64,000 bases of DNA from an uncultured Planctomycetota bacterium (GCA_963845755.1 CAWJTV010000020.1:416001-480000); one strand, 5' to 3'; shown: positions 1 through 59,357, numbered from the stretch's first letter. Numbers and translations are program-made. Notes: generated by a model from the letters alone, not told the origin.

Positions 1-3000
1 CGCGAACCAGCCGGGCGAACTCGCGAGCGAGGACGGCGGCCTCGACGCCATGCGTGCCCAGTGCGTGGATAAGAGCGCTGCGAGTGCGTGGGTCGGAACG
101 ATACTCGAGCAAGTGCCACACCGCGCCGTCGGAGCCGAGGCGGATCAGAGCGACCGCCGCCCGCGCCGCTCGCGCGGCCCGCCGATCCCTGGACTCTTCC
201 ACGTCCTCCGGGGTAGCGGGTGGCCTTTCCGACGTGCCTGGGATCCCCGTCGGCGAGCCGGGCGCCTCGACTCCCTTCGACAGCAAGACCGCCTCTTCCA
301 GATCAGCGAGGACGGCCGCTCGGTTCTTCTCGGCGACGGGGAGGAGGATCGAGAACGACATGGGATCGGAGTCGAGTAGCAGATCCACCAGGCGGTCGGG
401 GTCGTTGGCGGTGTACCGTGCCAGGACGTACGCCGCGAACTCGCGCTCCTCGATCGGACGATTGTGGTCCCGGTAGATTCGGGATAAGGGGTCGATGATC
501 ACGGATTGAATACCTGTCAGCGCGTCCGTCCAGGTGTTCACAGAAATGAGTTTCGCCCCGACCATCGCGTCTGCGACCTTGTTCGCCAGCTCGGACCAGT
601 TCGAATTCGTCCGGTCGTAACTCGCGAGTACGCCTGCCACGGGGAGCAGTCCATCATCACCAACCCTGGCCTCACGCAAGTCGCCCCATAGATTCTCGAT
701 CAGTTCGCCCTGATACGGCCTGAGGCTCTCCCGAAGTATGGGCATCTCCCCCGAAATGCCTTCGAGCAGGCGCCGGTGCAGGTAGTCGACCTGCCCACGG
801 TCGTCCGGCAGCCGGGCGAGGCTGTACCAGAGTCGAGAACGGGTGTCGTCTCCGGACCGGCTCGCCAGGTGCTGGAGGCGACGGGCATACATCCAGCGGG
901 GATAGGTTGCGAGTTGACCCAGGACCTCGGGGATCTTCTCAACTTTCGAGTTCGGTAGCGACTCCAGCAATACCTCGGTCCGCGAGTAGACGCTGTAGGC
1001 CTCGGTTATCATCGTCACGAGAGCAATGAAGATGACGAAGCCGAACAGTCTCGTCCCATGGACCCACCGTCCGCGCGTCATCATCCGCCGCTGAGGCTCG
1101 GTCCACCCCTTGGGTTTCGTCAACAGCCGAATCGATAGCCATTCGCCCGTTGATGGAAGGTGACGATCCTCCGGCTTGGAGTTCCATGCGGCTGCGCGCT
1201 CCGCCAGCAAGAACTCGACTCGACCGCGGCGAGTGTCACGCTGTTTGCGCGTCAACCACTCGCGAAGGGCGTGGACCAGGTAGTCGTGGGTCAGTTGGTA
1301 GTAGAGTCCGCCGACCGGGAGAGCCGGTGCGTCCTCATCGATCGAACCCTCCGGGTCAACCGGCGTGATCAGGCGAAGATCCGTATCGAGGATGCGGATC
1401 ACGTCGGCGAACTCCGTCGGTCTCTCGGCATAACCCGAGAACTGTCGAAGCTCCTCCACCGACCTCATCCGCCCCTTGATGTCGGCATTCGCCTCGGGCA
1501 GGAGCGCCTTCAACACGGCCTGTGCGGCTCTCTGATGGTAATGGTGGTTCGGATTGGACCGGGGCGAGCTGAAGGTGTCCTCGAGGAACGTGACCCCGAC
1601 TCCATCCATGCCGCCGACGTCGCGCAAGGTCGCGGTTGTCCAGGGCTTCTGCTTGACCATCTCGGCGAGGAGAGCCAGCCGAACCGGGACGACGCGACCG
1701 TCCTGCGCCAGGCCGTCGACCGCCTGGTCGAGGAATGCGCCATGTTCCCTCGTGAGGTCTTCGGTCCTCCGCGGCAGGGCCTCGTATGCGCGCGCCGAAC
1801 GCCGCCAGGACCTTGCGGGCGTGCTTCGGATCGAAGAGGTTGACAGCCGCCACGTTCCGGTCGGGCACCAGGTCGATCTCCAGGTCACGCATGAACCGGG
1901 TTGCCGCCATCCAGAAATCGTCCCGCACCAGGCAGATGGCCTGGAGGTGCTCGCCGTCACATTGCCGCAGCGCCGCCACCAGGTCGGTCGACGGCTCGCT
2001 CCGATGGGCGAACAGCCACTGCTCGAACTGGTCCAGGACCACGAGGACCTTCCGGTTCTGGGTTAGTGCCTGGTTGCGCCGCAGGGTCGTCAGGGACGCG
2101 GTCAGGCCGGCGTCGACGGGCAAGCCGGGGAACCCCTTGCGGACGCCGCGGAGCACGCGCGCCTCGGTCTCGGCGACCGTCGCCTCGACGTAGACCGGTG
2201 CCACGTGCTGGCCCAGCAGGGGCAGCAAGCCTGCCTTGACGAGCGACGACTTGCCGCAGCCCGACGGCCCGTAAATGAGCCCGACGCGGAACGTCCTGTC
2301 CGGGTCGGTCGCCTCGACCCGCGTCTTCCAGAATCGCAGCCCGTCCGGGAGTCCTCCGCGATCGCGAGGGCCAGGGAGTAGGTCGAGGAAGAAGTCGGCA
2401 TCGTTCTCGTCGAAAGAACTCAGTCCCTTCGGGACGATCCGGATCGCACGGAAGACGGAGTCCGACGATCCGGGGATCGGGGGGGGCGTGGGCTCGATGG
2501 ATGTTGCCATGGGGACTGCGTTGGCTTCCGGGCTCACGCCCTCCGTCGACCTCGCCCACAACACCGACTCGAGGAAGTGCCGCAGGTCCTCGGCCAGGTC
2601 CCGGGCGGTGGCGTACCGCTCGGCGGCCCGTTTCGAAAGCGCTTTCAGGCAGATCCGCTCGAGCTCCCGTGGGATCGAATCGTCGATCTGCCGCAGGGGA
2701 CGGGGCTCGGCACGGATGATCTGTTCCATGACCTGGTCTTTCGACGAACCCCGGAAGGGACGGCGGCCCGTCAGCAGTTCGTAGAGGACCAGGCCGAGGC
2801 TGAAGATGTCCGAACGGCCGTTCGACGCGATGCCCCTCGCCCCGCGCCTGCTCCGGACTCATGTACGCCGCCGTGCCGACGAGGCGCGGCACCCTTGCCG
2901 AGGTCCTCATCCCTCAGGGCCAGGCCGAAATCGGCGAGCGACGGGACGCCTGCCGCGTCGAGCAGGATGTTCGCGGGCTTGATGTCGCGGTGGAACAGGT

Positions 3001-15352: not shown

Positions 15353-15626
15353 AAGTCGTTCGCAAGTCTTGCCCTTTCTTCTGGTTGACGCGTATTAACT
15401 GGCATTGCCCCTGAATTGGTTTCTCGCGGCCATCTCTGGGGTCGCCCTCGTGTCAACCCTACCGCTGCATCGACAGCCTTCTCGAGAATTCGCCGATTTC
15501 GCGCGAACATCCGGCCGGTACTCGGCGTCTGTCAAGTACCAGACGCGACGGTGACAGCCAGCGTGGCCGAGACCGAGTTGTCGCGATCTGATCGGCCTCA
15601 GCTCTCAGACAGCGAGCGGGACTGCG

Positions 15627-15728
15627 ATGTACGGAGTATGTCAACGGCTTGATCGGGTCATCCGCAAGGCGAAACGTTCCGCCGATCGCTCAGCGAGTCT
15701 CCGCCCGCGCCAAGTCCGACGCTGCTGA
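15627..15728 (+). CDS. putative 33-aa leader peptide of tRNA cluster 1 (MYGVCQRLDRVIRKAKRSADRSASLRPRQVRRC)
   Basis: Purine-rich gagcggga before ATG; same length, similar sequence and same downstream RNA elements as the leader at 34086..34187. Confidence 0.65.
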   Translation: MYGVCQRLDRVIRKAKRSADRSASLRPRQVRRC

Positions 15729-15759
15729 CACCCGGCCTGTCCTCCTTCGACGGAATCTC

Positions 15760-15790
15760 AAGACCCGGTGTCGAAAACACTGGGTCTTTT
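15760..15790 (+). terminator. intrinsic terminator of the putative attenuator before tRNA cluster 1
   Basis: agacccggtgt-cgaaa-acactgggtct 11-bp stem followed by T run; its 5' arm can instead pair with 15727..15738. Confidence 0.75.
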
Positions 15791-15839
15791 CGTTGGACAG
15801 CGACGGAATCTCCGACGCTGCATCGTGCCGACCCTCGAA

Positions 15840-15914
15840 CAGGGCGTGGGAAAGCCTGGTTAATCCGCGAGCTCGGGGAGCTCGAGATCGCCGGTTCAAA
15901 TCCGGCCGCCCTGA
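15840..15914 (+). tRNA. tRNA-Pro (GGG as folded; atypical C33)
   Basis: Acceptor cagggcg/cgccctg, anticodon arm cgagc-tcgggga-gctcg, T arm gccgg-ttcaaat-ccggc; no CCA. Confidence 0.85.
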
Positions 15915-16004
15915 CACTCTGACATACGTAGGATATTCGGCCTCGGGAGGGAGGTGTTGAGATGGATGCGCGAGTCAAACGCATACCCCGGAGAGGCGAT
16001 CGCC

Positions 16005-16076
16005 GGGGTCGTGATGTAAAGGCAGCATATCGGCCTTTTAAGCCGGGAAGTGGGGGTTCGAGTCCCTCCGGCCCCA
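16005..16076 (+). tRNA. tRNA-Lys (TTT)
   Basis: Acceptor ggggtcg/cggcccc, anticodon arm tcggc-cttttaa-gccgg, T loop ttcgagt; no CCA. Confidence 0.9.
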
Positions 16077-16077
16077 A

Positions 16078-16149
16078 TGGCGCCTAGCTCAGCGGCAGAG
16101 CACTCCCCTTATAAGGGAGCGACGAGGGGTTCGAGTCCCCCGGCGCCGA
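16078..16149 (+). tRNA. tRNA-Ile (TAT)
   Basis: Acceptor tggcgcc/ggcgccg, D arm gctc-agcggca-gagc, anticodon arm ctccc-cttataa-gggag, T loop ttcgagt. Confidence 0.88.
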
Positions 16150-16172
16150 CCGTCGAGGCCATCGCATGAGAG

Positions 16173-16243
16173 CGGCCCGTAGCTCAAGGGCAGAGCATCC
16201 GGCCGATAACCGGAAGACGAAGGTTCGACTCCTTCCGGGCCGA
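16173..16243 (+). tRNA. tRNA-Ile (GAT; atypical C33)
   Basis: Acceptor cggcccg/cgggccg, anticodon arm tccgg-ccgataa-ccgga, T arm gaagg-ttcgact-ccttc. Confidence 0.88.
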
Positions 16244-16273
16244 CTCGTGTTGAGTGAGATCTCGCCCCGCGAA

Positions 16274-33739: not shown

Positions 33740-33798
33740 GTAGGGTGGGTGCAACCCACCATAACCCCAAGTCGGACGGTGGATTGCACCCACCCTAC
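33740..33798. repeat. GTAG-family REP inverted pair
   Basis: gtagggtgggtgcaacccacc ... ggtggattgcacccaccctac. Confidence 0.75.
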
Positions 33799-34085
33799 AA
33801 ATCTCATGGGCACTAGCAATTACCAATTTCTGCCCATGAGCCACCCACGTAAGACCGCCACAGCGACTCGGGAATGTTGAGTTCTTCGAACACGTTGGCA
33901 TTCCGTATCAGCAATGAGGAGGCTCGACCGACTTCCCGGATCTCACAGAGCCGATGATTCCGCGCGAACATCCCAACAGGCTCTTGCGTCTATCAAGCAA
34001 AGGCTGCGAGGAGACGGCAAGAGCGACAGGCCGGCGCGAGCATCAAGCCGTCGTGATCGGTCAGGACTGGTATGCGAGGAAGGCG

Positions 34086-34187
34086 ATGAACGGCGTGTGT
34101 CAACCGCTCGCGAGCTTGTCCAGACGTGCCGTTCGGTTCGACGGGGATCGGTCGAGTTCCCAGCGGTGGTATGCCCATCGCTGTTGA
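34086..34187 (+). CDS. putative 33-aa leader peptide of tRNA cluster 2 (MNGVCQPLASLSRRAVRFDGDRSSSQRWYAHRC)
   Basis: GAGGAAGG RBS; paralogous to 15627..15728. Confidence 0.65.
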   Translation: MNGVCQPLASLSRRAVRFDGDRSSSQRWYAHRC

Positions 34188-34222
34188 CGCCCGGCCTGCC
34201 TCGATCTGCTTGTGGAAATGGA

Positions 34223-34258
34223 AAGGCCCGGTGTCGAAATCCACCGGGCCTTATCTTT
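34223..34258 (+). terminator. terminator-like hairpin of the putative attenuator before tRNA cluster 2
   Basis: aaggcccggtg-tcgaaatc-caccgggcctt then atcttt; its 5' arm can instead pair with 34186..34197. Confidence 0.7.
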
Positions 34259-34432
34259 GGATGGCGCTGGCGGGCGGGGATGGATCCGTCACGGCCCATC
34301 ACCAAATCCGGGAAACTCGGTAACAAACGCGGACAACGCATGGAGAATGTGCGAATCCGTATAATCGCACCAAATACTTTGATAATTCGAGCTTCGGCTG
34401 GATTCTAAATCCACGGCGAGATAATGCATTAG

Positions 34433-34478
34433 CTCCGTAGCAAGGAGGCGGACCGAGTTCGACTCTCGATGCGGTTCT
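34433..34478 (+). pseudogene. 3' half of a degenerate tRNA (loop reads AGC; identity uncertain)
   Basis: ctcc-gtagcaa-ggag arm and cgag-ttcgact-ctcg T arm, with no D arm or 5' acceptor strand upstream. Confidence 0.5.
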
Positions 34479-34491
34479 TTCGATCAACGAT

Positions 34492-34563
34492 GGGCGGCTG
34501 GTCTAACGGGATGACACTTGGTTTGCACCCAGGAGATCGGGGTTCGATTCCCCGGCCGGTCCA
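34492..34563 (+). tRNA. tRNA-Ala (TGC)
   Basis: Anticodon arm cttgg-tttgcac-ccagg, T arm cgggg-ttcgatt-ccccg, G3:U70-type pair; one extra G in the 3' acceptor strand. Confidence 0.8.
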
Positions 34564-34645
34564 CTCCCTCGCGGGTTCGAGTCATGGTCGGGGTATCAGA
34601 ATTCCTTCGGAATCGTGAGTCCTCGACCGGAAAGCGGAAAGCGCG

Positions 34646-34718
34646 GCCTCGGTGGTGAAATGGACGATCATCCCTCGCTTCTAACGAGGTGTTCCAGGTT
34701 CGAGTCCTGGCCGAGGTA
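34646..34718 (+). tRNA. tRNA-Arg (TCT)
   Basis: Acceptor gcctcgg/ccgaggt, anticodon arm cctcg-cttctaa-cgagg, T arm ccagg-ttcgagt-cctgg. Confidence 0.9.
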
Positions 34719-34742
34719 TGACTGTTGAACGAAGTGGAATGA

Positions 34743-34815
34743 GGACCCGTCGTCTAGCGGCGAAGACGTCCCTTTGACGTGGGGAAGACCGGTGGTTCGA
34801 GTCCACCCGGGACCA
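34743..34815 (+). tRNA. tRNA-Val (GAC)
   Basis: Anticodon arm tccct-ttgacgt-gggga, T arm ggtgg-ttcgagt-ccacc; A.A mismatch at acceptor pair 3. Confidence 0.82.
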
Positions 34816-34944
34816 CTGGTTGGCGAGACCCACTTGATATGGAAGCGCTACACGACTCGGGCGCGAGCGAGCGATGAGCCTTGCAGCTTCGACTTCCGCC
34901 CCTCGCGCTTCGACCCGGGCGAGTCCCGGGCAGGCCTTGATGAT

Positions 34945-35017
34945 GGTGATCGTGGTGTATCGGTCGCATCCGAGACTGTGAATCTCGACGTGCCGGGTTC
35001 AACTCCGGCCGAATACC
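34945..35017 (+). tRNA. tRNA-His (GTG), slightly degenerate
   Basis: G-1 present; anticodon arm cgaga-ctgtgaa-tctcg; acceptor mismatch and irregular T stem. Confidence 0.72.
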
Positions 35018-35035
35018 CTCGCTCAATCGAAAGAC

Positions 35036-35105
35036 AGGGGTGTGCTCCTGGGAGAGCAGCGAGCCTCCAAAACTCGTGCACAAGGTTCGAATCCTTGCAC
35101 TCCTG
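35036..35105 (+). tRNA. tRNA-Trp (CCA)
   Basis: Acceptor aggggtg/cactcct, loop ctccaaa, T arm caagg-ttcgaat-ccttg; compact D arm. Confidence 0.85.
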
Positions 35106-35129
35106 CTGGATGAATCTCCAGGCTCTCGT

Positions 35130-36387
35130 CTAAACTCGGCGCAAGAGCGGCAGTGGAGCGAACCCAGCCCCGAGGACGGATTCCGGAGGACATCCGAGCC
35201 AGTCGGCCAGGAGGCTCGCATAGACCTGGCGGAAGTCGGTGTGAAACTTCAAGTCGCCGTCGTCGAGGTCGTCCAGGCTCGGATGCTTGCCCACCAGGCC
35301 CGGCTTGGCGACCGGGCCGACGAGGAAGACCGGCGCCGCGGCGCCGTGGTCCGTCCCTTGCGAGGCGTTCTCTTGCACCCGGCGCCCGAATTCGCTGAAC
35401 GTCAGGACAACGACGCGGTCGGCCTGGCCGGCCGCGGTCAGGTCGTCATGGAACGCGGCGATCGAATCCGACAGCTCATTGAGCAGCGCCTGGTGGCTGC
35501 CGAGCTGGTTCGCGTGGGTGTCGAACCCGTCGAGCGATGTATAGAAGATCTGAGTACCGAAGTCCGCCTTGATCATCTGAGCGACCAGCTCCAGGCGACG
35601 CGCTAGCCCGAAATTGGGGTACTTGGGACCCGTTCCCGGCTTCGGCGCGAGCTGTTCGAGCCGGCTGCTGGATTCATACGCCGACAACGTCGTGCGGCTG
35701 ATGAAGCCGAGCAACGGGTCGTCCTCGCGACGCTCGACCCGCGCCATCTCCGATCAGCGCGGAGCGCGTCGCTTTCCGGTCAGGCTCGGCGCCGGCAACC
35801 CGGAGCTTGTAGGTCTCGAGGCTCTCCAGCGCCGGGACTTCAGTCTTGCGGCTGCGCAACGCCTGGGGCAAGCTGCGGCCGCCGACGTGCAATGCCGACG
35901 GATCGTCGCCCGGCTTGCGGCCCTTCGCATCGAGGGCCCGTCCCAGCCAGCCGGTCTCCACAGATGCAGGAGCATTGTCCAGCCGGGCGGTCTCCCAGAT
36001 CTCCATCGATCGGAAGTGAGAACGGTCGGGATTGGGGTAACCCACTCCCTGCACGATTCCCAGTCGTCCCTTTTCCAGCAGCTTTGCCATCCCTCCCATC
36101 GCGGGATGCAATCCGATCTCCGGGGTGACCTTATGGACCTGGCCCGGGGACGAGCGCAATGCCCTCCGCCCGCGGTTATAGCCATCGATCCCATGAGGGA
36201 CCACGGTATTCAATCCGTCATTTCCGCCCAGGAGTTGGACGACAACGAGAATTCGGTCTTTGGCTTTTCCGCCCATGGCCGCCTGGGCCGTACGGCCGAG
36301 GAAGCCGGGGATCGTCGTCGCGCCCATCGCGACCAGCGTACTGGTCCCGATCGACTGTTGAAGAAACTGGCGGCGGCTCGAAGGCAT
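35130..36387 (-). CDS. DUF1501 domain protein (frameshift ~35750)
   Basis: SRRQFL Tat motif, GGNDGLNTVVP, RSHFRS; GFDTH, FSEFGRR, GTDHG in ORF 35130..35747. Confidence 0.9.
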
Positions 36388-57635: not shown

Positions 57636-59357
57636 ATGAGCGTGAAACTCTCGCGAAAAGCCTACGCCAAGAAGTACGGCCCAACGGTCGGCGACCGCAT
57701 CCGGCTGGCCGACACCGAGCTGATCATCGAGATCGAGCACGACTACACCGACTACGGCGAGGAATCGATCTTCGGCGGCGGAAAGTCGATCCGTGACGGG
57801 CAGGATCAATGCCCGATCGAAGATGTGATGGGTCCCGAACACTGCGACCTGGTCATCACCAACGCCGTGATCATCGACCACTGGGGGATTGTCAAGGGTG
57901 ACATCGGCATTCGAGGCGGCCGCATCGTGGCGGTCGGCAAGTCTGGGAACCCGCTGACGCAATCCGGTGTTGACCCGAGGCTGGTCATCGGGCCGGGCAC
58001 CGAAATCATTGCGGGCGAGGGCAAGATCTGTACGGCGGGTGGCATCGACACCCACATCCACTTCATCTGCCCGCAGCAGATCGAGGTCGCCATCGCCAGC
58101 GGCATTACCACACTGATCGGCGGTGGAACCGGATCGGCGACGGGGACCTGGGCAACAACCTGCACGCCCGGCCCGTGGAACATCATGCGAATGCTCCAGG
58201 CATTCGAAGGGCTGGCGATCAACGTGGGGATCCTCGGCAAGGGCAACGGCAGCGTGCCGAGGCCCCTGTGCAAGCAAATCGAGGCCGGAGCCTGCGGGCT
58301 GAAGCTCCACGAGGACTGGGGCACCACACCCGCCGTGATCGACACCAGCTTGTCAGTGGCCGACGAATACGACATTCAGATCGCCATCCACACCGACACG
58401 CTCAACGAGTCGGGTTTCATCGACGATTCGATCGCGGCGATCAAGGGGCGGGCAATTCACAGCTTCCACACCGAGGGTGCCGGCGGCGGCCATGCCCCGG
58501 ACATCATCAAGATCGCCGGGCTGCCCAACGTGCTCCCCTCGAGCACGAACCCCACTCGCCCGTTCACCGTCAACACGATCGACGAGCATCTCGACATGCT
58601 GATGGTCTGCCATCACCTGTCGCGGGACATTCCCGAGGACGTGGCGTTCGCCGAGAGCCGCATCCGGGCCGAGACCATCGGCGCCGAGGACGTCTTCCAC
58701 GACCGCGGCATCATCAGCATGATGAGCTCGGACTCACAAGCGATGGGCCGTATCGGCGAGGCGATCGTCCGGTGCTGGCAGACGGCCCACAAGATGAAAG
58801 TGCAGCTCGGCCCCCTGGCCGGCGACAGCTCGCGCAACGACAACGAGCGCGTCAAGCGGTACGTCGCCAAATACACGATCAACCCGGCGGTCACGCATGG
58901 CATCGCCCAGCACGTCGGGAGTATCGAGGGCGGCAAACTGGCCGACCTGGTGCTGTACGAGCCGGCGAACTTCGGTGTGAAACCCTTCCTGATCCTCAAG
59001 GGAGGCCTCATCGTCGCCGCCCAGATGGGCGACCCCAACGCCAGCATCGCCACGCCGCAGCCCGTGTACATGCGACCTCAGTTCGCCGCCTACGGCCGGG
59101 CGCTGTCCAAGTCCTGTCTGAGCTTCGTCTCGAAGGTCTCGCTGGACAAGGGGATCGTCGATCGCTACGGCCTCGAGCGCGAGGTCGTGGCCGTCGAGAA
59201 CTGCCGTGACATCGGCAAGAAGGACATGCATCGTAACGAGGCAACTCCTGAGATCCGCGTGGACCCGGACACCTACCAGGTCTGGGTCAACGGCGAGAAG
59301 GTCAGCAGCGAACCGCTCGAGGAGCTGCCGATGTCTCAACTTTACTTCGTATTCTGA
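57636..59357 (+). CDS. ureC: urease alpha subunit
   Basis: [40 protein letters not shown]. Confidence 0.98.

Follow-up and report, generated by a model that had tools for sequence, protein, structure and literature searches.

Leader peptide attenuators control the amino acid operons trp, his, leu, thr, and pheA, and they include the antibiotic-sensing bmrCD and erm-type leaders. T-box riboswitches control aminoacyl-tRNA synthetase genes and amino acid genes and are not known to control tRNA genes. Several bacterial phyla carry long arrays of spare tRNA genes whose function and regulation are still poorly understood; the array of Anabaena PCC 7120 is the one studied case. That array is described as normally silent and induced by translational stress, and its control is ascribed to a repressor, TrcR, which acts on direct repeats at a sigma-70 promoter (PMC8421152, PMC10272220). 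Planctomycetes are named among the phyla with long tRNA arrays (PMC8421152). Two surveys of such arrays (PMC8421152 and PMC4758250) mention Planctomycetes in passing in their main texts, where the terms "leader," "attenuat," and "terminator" are absent; their supplements may list the planctomycete arrays. A literature search for papers that join tRNA arrays with an attenuator, a leader peptide, or an upstream open reading frame (ORF) returned none, and no published description of the element reported here was found.

The element lies in a 64,000-nucleotide stretch of DNA from an uncultured Planctomycetota bacterium (GCA_963845755.1, CAWJTV010000020.1:416001-480000), which is termed the window herein and to which all positions refer unless stated otherwise. 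An initial annotation had pointed to positions 34086 to 34258 as the second, diverged copy of a leader peptide attenuator in front of a tRNA cluster. This is a real, conserved element, and it is most likely a form of ribosome-dependent attenuation applied to spare tRNA arrays.

RESULTS

Anatomy of the leader upstream of tRNA cluster 2

On the plus strand of the window, the leader ORF of this copy (copy 2; read from the window and from the ORF list) runs from 34086 to 34187, with an ATG at 34086 to 34088, a TGA at 34185 to 34187, and 33 sense codons in between (MNGVCQPLASLSRRAVRFDGDRSSSQRWYAHRC). It is preceded by a promoter-like element at 33962 to 33991 with the layout GCGC-GAAC (33966 to 33969)-N17-CGTC (33987 to 33990)-T, a motif of the ECF-sigma type with an A-rich stretch further upstream, and by a Shine-Dalgarno-like sequence, GAGGAAGG (34076 to 34083), 6 nt before the ATG. 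Codons 3 to 7 (GGCGTGTGTCAAC, 34092 to 34104) form the candidate region 1, which is complementary to region 2 and could act as an anti-antiterminator. Further into the ORF, the hairpin P1 (CGACGG-GGAT-CGGTCG, 34139 to 34154) has five of its six pairs in this copy. Region 2 (34185 to 34197), the predicted antiterminator strand, consists of the TGA itself plus CGCCCGGCCT and pairs with 34224 to 34235; a small hairpin, P3 (34205 to 34216), weak in this copy, sits at the tip of the antiterminator. The predicted terminator (34223 to 34259) is made of the arms aaggcccggtg (34223 to 34233) and caccgggcctt (34242 to 34252), the loop tcgaaatc, and the T-rich tail ttatctttg.

The initial annotation had proposed that the stop codon overlaps a strand that competes for one arm of this hairpin, and the window bears this out. 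The TGA overlaps gacgcccggcct at 34186 to 34197, which pairs with aggcccggtgtc at 34224 to 34235 at 11 of 12 positions, counting one G-T wobble and leaving a central C.C mismatch, and the competing hairpin is present at 34223 to 34252. The two pairings are mutually exclusive.

Two further copies in the genome

The genome (14.3 Mb in 49 contigs) contains three such elements, all of which immediately precede part of a long spare-tRNA array. Copy 1, also on the plus strand of the window, has a promoter-like GAAC-N17-CGTC motif at 15505 to 15529 and a leader ORF of 33 codons plus TGA at 15627 to 15728, followed at 15726 to 15795 by region 2 (15726 to 15738), a spacer, a predicted terminator hairpin (15760 to 15788), and a T-rich tail. 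The ORFs of copies 1 and 2 align without gaps, and upstream blocks are common to both. The number of codons is thus identical, as had been claimed, and most of the peptide features said to be shared are indeed shared (M-x-G-V-C-Q-x-L, R13, A15, R17, and the terminal RC), but the DRS motif is offset by one codon (codons 20 to 22 versus 21 to 23). The rival pairing of copy 1 comprises 10 of 12 positions rather than 11.

The third copy is located on contig C41, directly upstream of a long tRNA run, and has the same promoter-like motif, 33 codons, and the same hairpin; its TGA lies inside TGACACCCGGTCT. The likeness of copies 1 and 2 exceeds chance: this third copy precedes an array of 34 to 36 tRNA genes, and frame, stop position, and pairing persist in the 50 full-length relatives described below.

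Relatives in the family Isosphaeraceae

The three copies were used to build a covariance model, the terminator being the sole structure supplied, and this model was searched against 121 genomes of the family Isosphaeraceae. Matches at an E value of ≤0.01 were obtained in 62 of the 121 genomes and matches below 1e−9 in 35; many of the weaker ones consist of the hairpin alone, and weak matches in three genomes (G089, G090, and G091) were rejected because no tRNAs follow them. Fifty-two strong matches were examined, of which 50 are full length (34 genomes, 20 genera) and constitute alignment A5. In a sample of 150 genomes from other parts of the phylum, matches at an E value of ≤1e−4 occurred in six, and the only real relative outside the family came from a genome of another family of the same class (G123), where the element (L104) is followed by a Phe-first array. 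The second match in that genome and those in the other five genomes were discarded, having no tRNA gene in the examined locus; five of these six cover little beyond the hairpin. Two divergent members outside the alignment, L120 (38 codons, ending in FRT) and L104 (51 codons, ending in YPLRT), both have the TGA inside region 2. G098 and G107, relatives assembled in few large contigs, may be cultured isolates.

Apart from tRNAs and one unrelated small RNA, no Rfam family reached its gathering score in the window, and the region from 33800 to 34500 gave only two chance-level matches (E values of 4.1 and 6.8), with no T-box and no other family. The small RNA is a full-length match to 5_ureB_sRNA (RF02514; 97 bits versus a gathering score of 40) at 57787 to 58089 on the minus strand. 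This family is unexpected outside Helicobacter, and a urease gene encoded on the other strand may explain the match.

The leader frame is preserved, its peptide largely is not

Start and stop codons are conserved among the 50 aligned leaders: 46 begin with ATG, 3 with GTG, and 1 with CTG, the TGA stands at a common column in 48, and the frame is intact to this TGA in 46, the four leaders that break the pattern being L054 (+1), L078 (−1), and L084 and L085 (without TGA). In 35 of the 50 leaders, GAGG, GGAG, or AGGA is present at −18 to −4; a control window placed another 30 nt upstream has such a motif in 2 of 50. None of the 48 rows whose distance from the ATG to the stop column is divisible by three contains an internal stop in frame 0, whereas frame +1 is open in only 17 of the 50 leaders and frame +2 in 30. 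The ORF has 33 codons in 34 leaders, and whole-codon variants span 27 to 35 codons. Of the 16 length variants of the ORF, 13 deviate from the modal length by multiples of three; the corresponding counts are 3 of 35 for the spacer behind the stop codon, 7 of 44 for the 5′ untranslated region (UTR), and 3 of 27 for the terminator loop (pooled, 13 of 106, or about 12%). These length changes are the strongest evidence for what appears to be a translated frame.

The amino acid sequence behaves differently from the frame. Differences within 12 disjoint closest pairs are spread evenly over codon positions 1, 2, and 3 (103, 102, and 83) without an excess at the third, and frame 0, with a ratio of synonymous to nonsynonymous changes of 29/170, does not outperform the shifted frames, with 49/158 and 47/154. 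Substitutions that are even over codon positions, together with the lack of a synonymous excess in frame 0, point to selection on translation and not on the whole peptide; general purifying selection on the amino acid sequence is not apparent, and translation itself seems to matter rather than its product. Selection on both the peptide and the RNA switch had been proposed; in the relatives this would hold for the switch and for the act of translation (start, frame, and stop), not for the peptide as a whole.

Two positions are exceptions. The second-to-last codon (34179 to 34181 in copy 2) encodes Arg in 43 of 46 leaders by means of five codons (CGC, CGG, CGA, CGT, and AGG), and Arg17 is kept in 24 of 34 leaders by means of four. 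In these 46 leaders the stop is TGA throughout, with C or T as the next base, and this context, together with the Arg at position −2, may affect how long a ribosome dwells at the stop. Both arginines and the conserved frame would also suit a small, Arg- and Cys-rich functional protein (about 33 residues) coexpressed with the arrays and acting in trans, as has been reported for some attenuator leader peptides, e.g., peTrpL. We consider such a protein very improbable, given the even substitution pattern and the synonymous ratio described above and the fact that most positions of the peptide are less than 50% conserved.

The shared M-x-G-V-C-Q is better explained as a constraint on the RNA, because its codons have their complement in the sequence at the stop, and the DRS/RSA motif falls within the conserved hairpin P1 (the "RSA-x-RSA" codons). 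That these "peptide" motifs coincide with pairings (codons 3 to 7 with region 2, RSA-x-RSA in P1), that the TGA itself is part of a pairing, and that purifying selection at the amino acid level is missing would all be expected of an untranslated structured RNA, be it a riboswitch-like or T-box-like one switched by a protein, a small molecule, or uncharged tRNA or a small RNA gene in its own right, with the frame as a by-product. This explanation is unlikely: in-frame length changes are specific to the ORF (13 of 16 versus 13 of 106 in the flanks), the ATG and a Shine-Dalgarno-like site are conserved, frame 0 is never interrupted while the other frames mostly are, and neither a T-box nor any other Rfam family matches the region. 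A translated leader remains our preferred reading.

Two predicted alternative folds of the leader RNA

Helices were counted on alignment A5, which is fitted to the terminator only. The terminator helix has 92% of its cells paired, with compensatory changes in 5 of its 12 pairs across the 50 leaders. Inside the ORF, P1 has 85% of cells paired and a closing pair that covaries (AU in 18, GC in 15, and GU in 6 leaders); that P1 is a pause hairpin for RNA polymerase is something we only infer. P3 has 62% of cells paired, and all three of its pairs have changed on both sides. The antiterminator (region 2 with the 5′ arm of the terminator) is retained in the relatives, each of its ten pairs being standard in 43 to 48 of the 50 rows, and the central C.C or A.C mismatch is constant in 48. 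Taken together, P1, P3, and the antiterminator have 81% of cells paired, versus 26 to 42% in slid registers. The strands of the antiterminator are nearly invariant, with a single pair changed on both sides, and 25 and 52 of 500 shuffles reach the pair-count measures; the antiterminator thus appears to be supported by conservation and not by covariation, which speaks neither for nor against it. For region 1 (codons 3 to 7, GVCQ) with region 2, 68% of cells are paired versus 33 to 45% in slid registers; its covariation is weak, being reached by 24 to 35 of 500 shuffles, and a role as anti-antiterminator has moderate support. RNAalifold, run on the 50 leaders, predicted only the terminator.

The predicted energies of the competing folds are close, at −24.4 kcal/mol for the antiterminator and −23.0 kcal/mol for the terminator in copy 2 and at −16.3 and −18.3 kcal/mol, respectively, in copy 1. 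Without the 3′ arm, minimum-energy folds contain the antiterminator in 29 of the 50 leaders and lack it in 21; with the 3′ arm, they contain the terminator in 45. As long as region 3 is not yet present, upstream pairing of region 2 is predicted for 37 of the 50. The tail that follows GGGCC of the 3′ arm has at least five T's within nine bases in 44 of the 50 leaders, and this tract is interrupted. A simple consensus terminator scan flagged neither hairpin in the window, because it takes the longest stem and thereby uses up two T's of the tail. A motif of the 5′ UTR, GGCCTGAGA, which pairs over a long range with the sequence just before the terminator, was dropped as not general; judged by eye, this pairing is exact and compensatory in Phe-first leaders only.

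A promoter-like motif of the ECF type precedes the leaders

GAAC-N16-18-CGTC was found upstream of 51 of the 52 leaders, the exception being cut by the end of its contig, and the spacer is 17 nt long in 48 of the 50 promoter rows listed. The longer consensus reads GCGC-GAAC-ATC...G-CGTC-T and lies downstream of an A-rich stretch. Within 300 nt upstream, the pattern is present for 3 of the 102 tRNA genes of the genome, namely, two array genes and one stand-alone gene. The rRNA operon of this planctomycete has the sigma-70-like promoter TTGACT-N17-TAGTAT (G000:C27:59360-59395, minus strand), and its housekeeping promoter looks canonical. AAC in the −35 element is a feature of ECF promoters. The array promoter is distinct from the housekeeping one and resembles ECF-sigma promoters in its −35 element containing AAC, its −10 element CGTC, and a spacer of 16 to 17 nt; judged by this motif, it would be of the ECF-sigma type and would call for an alternative sigma factor. 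CGTC is given as a −10 sequence typical of many ECF promoters (PMC3426412).

When the genome was scanned with a loose form of the pattern, 140 matches were obtained versus 29 for the reversed control and no sigma gene was singled out; the pattern is too permissive, and the regulon search that was based on it was dropped. Outside the window, one more sequence, the fourth, closely matches the array promoter: GCGCGAACATCC-N13-GCGTCTG (G000:C20:720435, minus strand). It is followed by neither a tRNA nor a leader nor a clear gene.

Fragments of long tRNA arrays follow the element

ARAGORN called 102 tRNA genes in the genome. A single run on contig C41 accounts for 34 of them, or for 36 if its 6-kb locus is scanned alone, so that the array on C41 comprises 34 to 36 genes in 3.4 kb. 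Two further fragments are in the window, both on the plus strand: cluster 1 (Pro-ggg, Lys-ttt, Ile-tat, and Ile-gat; 15840 to 16244) and cluster 2 (Ala-tgc, Arg-tct, Val-gac, His-gtg, and Trp-cca; 34492 to 35106). Arrays hold 45 of the 102 tRNA genes, and these are 52 to 77% identical to the stand-alone isoacceptors with the same anticodon. Tandem, on the same strand, supernumerary, and diverged, they are long tRNA arrays (L-arrays). Gene order within the arrays is conserved across genomes (Phe-Glu-Pro-Lys-Ile ... His-Trp ... Arg-Cys), with breakpoints that differ between genomes.

The initial annotation had also expected the element to be linked to translation-related genes, and a same-strand tRNA array follows 51 of the 52 matches (L076 is the exception). 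In 21 of the 52, the first tRNA starts 0 to 9 nt past the modeled element, which leaves no room for another promoter there. Copy 2 has 229 nt between the predicted terminator and the first tRNA, and a separate promoter in this gap is possible. Array fragments are usually headed by their own promoter and leader and less often by a promoter alone. In L032, from a genome of the same genus (G046; 1460 to 1530, minus strand), the promoter lies 40 nt before an Arg-tct/Val/Ser/His/Trp fragment with no leader ORF or hairpin, and four further fragments (L093, L098, L102, and L103) are headed in the same way. The existence of such promoter-only fragments indicates that the leader is dispensable for expression.

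These observations bear on a further explanation, namely, that the leader is a 5′ part of the array transcript without any sensing function and that its hairpin either is a fixed structure serving 5′ processing or stability of the tRNA precursor or terminates constitutively but leakily. In favor of this view, 21 of 52 hairpins directly adjoin the first tRNA, the T-tract has imperfections, and some fragments carry the promoter alone. Left unexplained by it would be the translated frame and a stop codon within the strand complementary to the 5′ arm, kept across 20 genera, as well as the match in energy of the two folds, and we judge a fixed structure to be quite unlikely. An attenuator that responds to translation remains our preferred reading.

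Several features around the arrays of the window were noted in passing. The spacer from 34259 to 34491 is less GC-rich, contains a TATAAT at ∼34360, and includes a T-arm-like sequence, gagttcgactctcg, preceded by an anticodon-arm-like one, ggattctaaatcc; ARAGORN and Rfam made no call there, and the spacer may be a tRNA remnant. Between tRNA-Val-gac and tRNA-His, a 130-nt gap (34817 to 34945) holds what by eye is a decayed tRNA-Ser, with part of the variable arm and T arm kept and the anticodon arm gone; relatives have an intact Ser-gga at the matching place (L032, 1172 to 1259). Palindromic units (gtagggtgggt...acccaccctac) with the look of a REP-type intergenic repeat lie just upstream of the array promoters at 33740 to 33800 in the window and at 1560 to 1860 in L032, where several copies stand in tandem. 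The neighbors of the window arrays are ordinary chromosomal genes (desaturases, MBOAT/AlgX, MFS, and DUF1501), and no signs of mobile elements were seen around these arrays. The DUF1501 gene next to cluster 2 (35130 to 36387, minus strand) appears as two overlapping ORFs (35130 to 35747 and 35674 to 36387), which may be due to a frameshift or an assembly error.

DISCUSSION

Judging from sequence comparison, we think it fairly likely that the element is a ribosome-dependent (leader peptide) transcription attenuator that lies behind an ECF-type promoter and gates spare tRNA arrays. Probably, it turns the spare tRNAs on when protein synthesis slows. Transcription would start at the ECF-sigma-type promoter (GAAC-N17-CGTC) and yield a leader of ∼260 nt. 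If this leader is translated briskly, the ribosome at the TGA would cover region 2, the terminator would form, and the tRNA genes would stay silent. A ribosome that lags or stalls within the frame, whether through a shortage of charged or intact tRNA or because it is inhibited, would leave region 2 free to pair with the 5′ arm of the terminator, and the polymerase could read into the array. If the leader is not translated at all, codons 3 to 7 may sequester region 2, and termination would result, a step for which the pairing counts provide moderate support. A search of sequencing runs found no run with half of the sampled words of the stretch; one RNA run shared 0.04.

As to the signal, no regulatory run of codons for a single amino acid was found in the leaders. 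They contain 15.2 distinct residues on average; the figure is 13.5 (standard deviation, 2.0) for proxy-protein windows of 33 residues and 14.5 for draws from the leaders' own composition. The effect is modest, and the idea of an "all-amino-acid" leader was set aside. With no codon run and about 15 amino acids in use, we take the signal to be general decoding speed, which is probably what is sensed rather than one amino acid.

It is conceivable, if doubtful, that the leader is a sensor of the tRNA pool with feedback, in which lost, damaged, or uncharged tRNAs stall the ribosome and thereby switch on exactly their replacement copies. The frame would then sample many codons, the leader of each fragment would drift toward the codons of the tRNAs behind it, and starvation, anticodon nucleases, and phage or toxin attack would be the triggers. 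When leader residues were compared with the first five tRNAs of their own block, the score was 0.063 higher than for other leaders, with a positive value for 10 of the 12 leader types, although these types are not independent of one another; an earlier scoring of matches between leader codons and tRNAs was rejected because it was confounded by the abundance of Arg, Ser, and Ala. The tracking of the tRNAs behind by leader composition is faintly visible and not established. Were this proposal true, the arrays, together with their ECF-type promoter, would be an emergency translation kit with two keys.

If the attenuator model itself is right, the ribosome would report decoding speed and gate tRNA synthesis, so that the supply of tRNAs would be fed back directly from translation. 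The conserved small frame, which appears to be translated, was missed by gene callers. The family is suited to comparative and bench work, offering dozens of diverged copies, promoter-only fragments as natural controls, and several leaders per genome.

How does the element compare with described systems? Like T-box riboswitches, it has a leader with a predicted terminator and antiterminator that would report on tRNA charging; unlike them, it has no Rfam T-box match, specifier loop, or T-box bulge and has what appears to be a translated frame instead. The arrays resemble that of Anabaena PCC 7120, in which diverged, supernumerary tRNA genes likewise stand in tandem by the dozens on a single strand, and the induction of the Anabaena array by translational stress fits the switch logic proposed here, whereas control in the present case would apparently be exerted after initiation, by an attenuator, and through an alternative-sigma promoter. 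The closest parallel is provided by the amino acid and antibiotic leader attenuators, which share the short leader frame, a stop next to or inside the antiterminator strand, mutually exclusive terminator and antiterminator (both predicted here), and a possible pairing of regions 1 and 2. Their feedback logic is already known for amino acid operons and resistance genes. In those systems the position of the ribosome decides on read-through, which we infer for the present element from its sequence; the differences are that here tRNA genes would be controlled, that the leader has no run of codons for one amino acid, and that the promoter appears to be of the ECF type.
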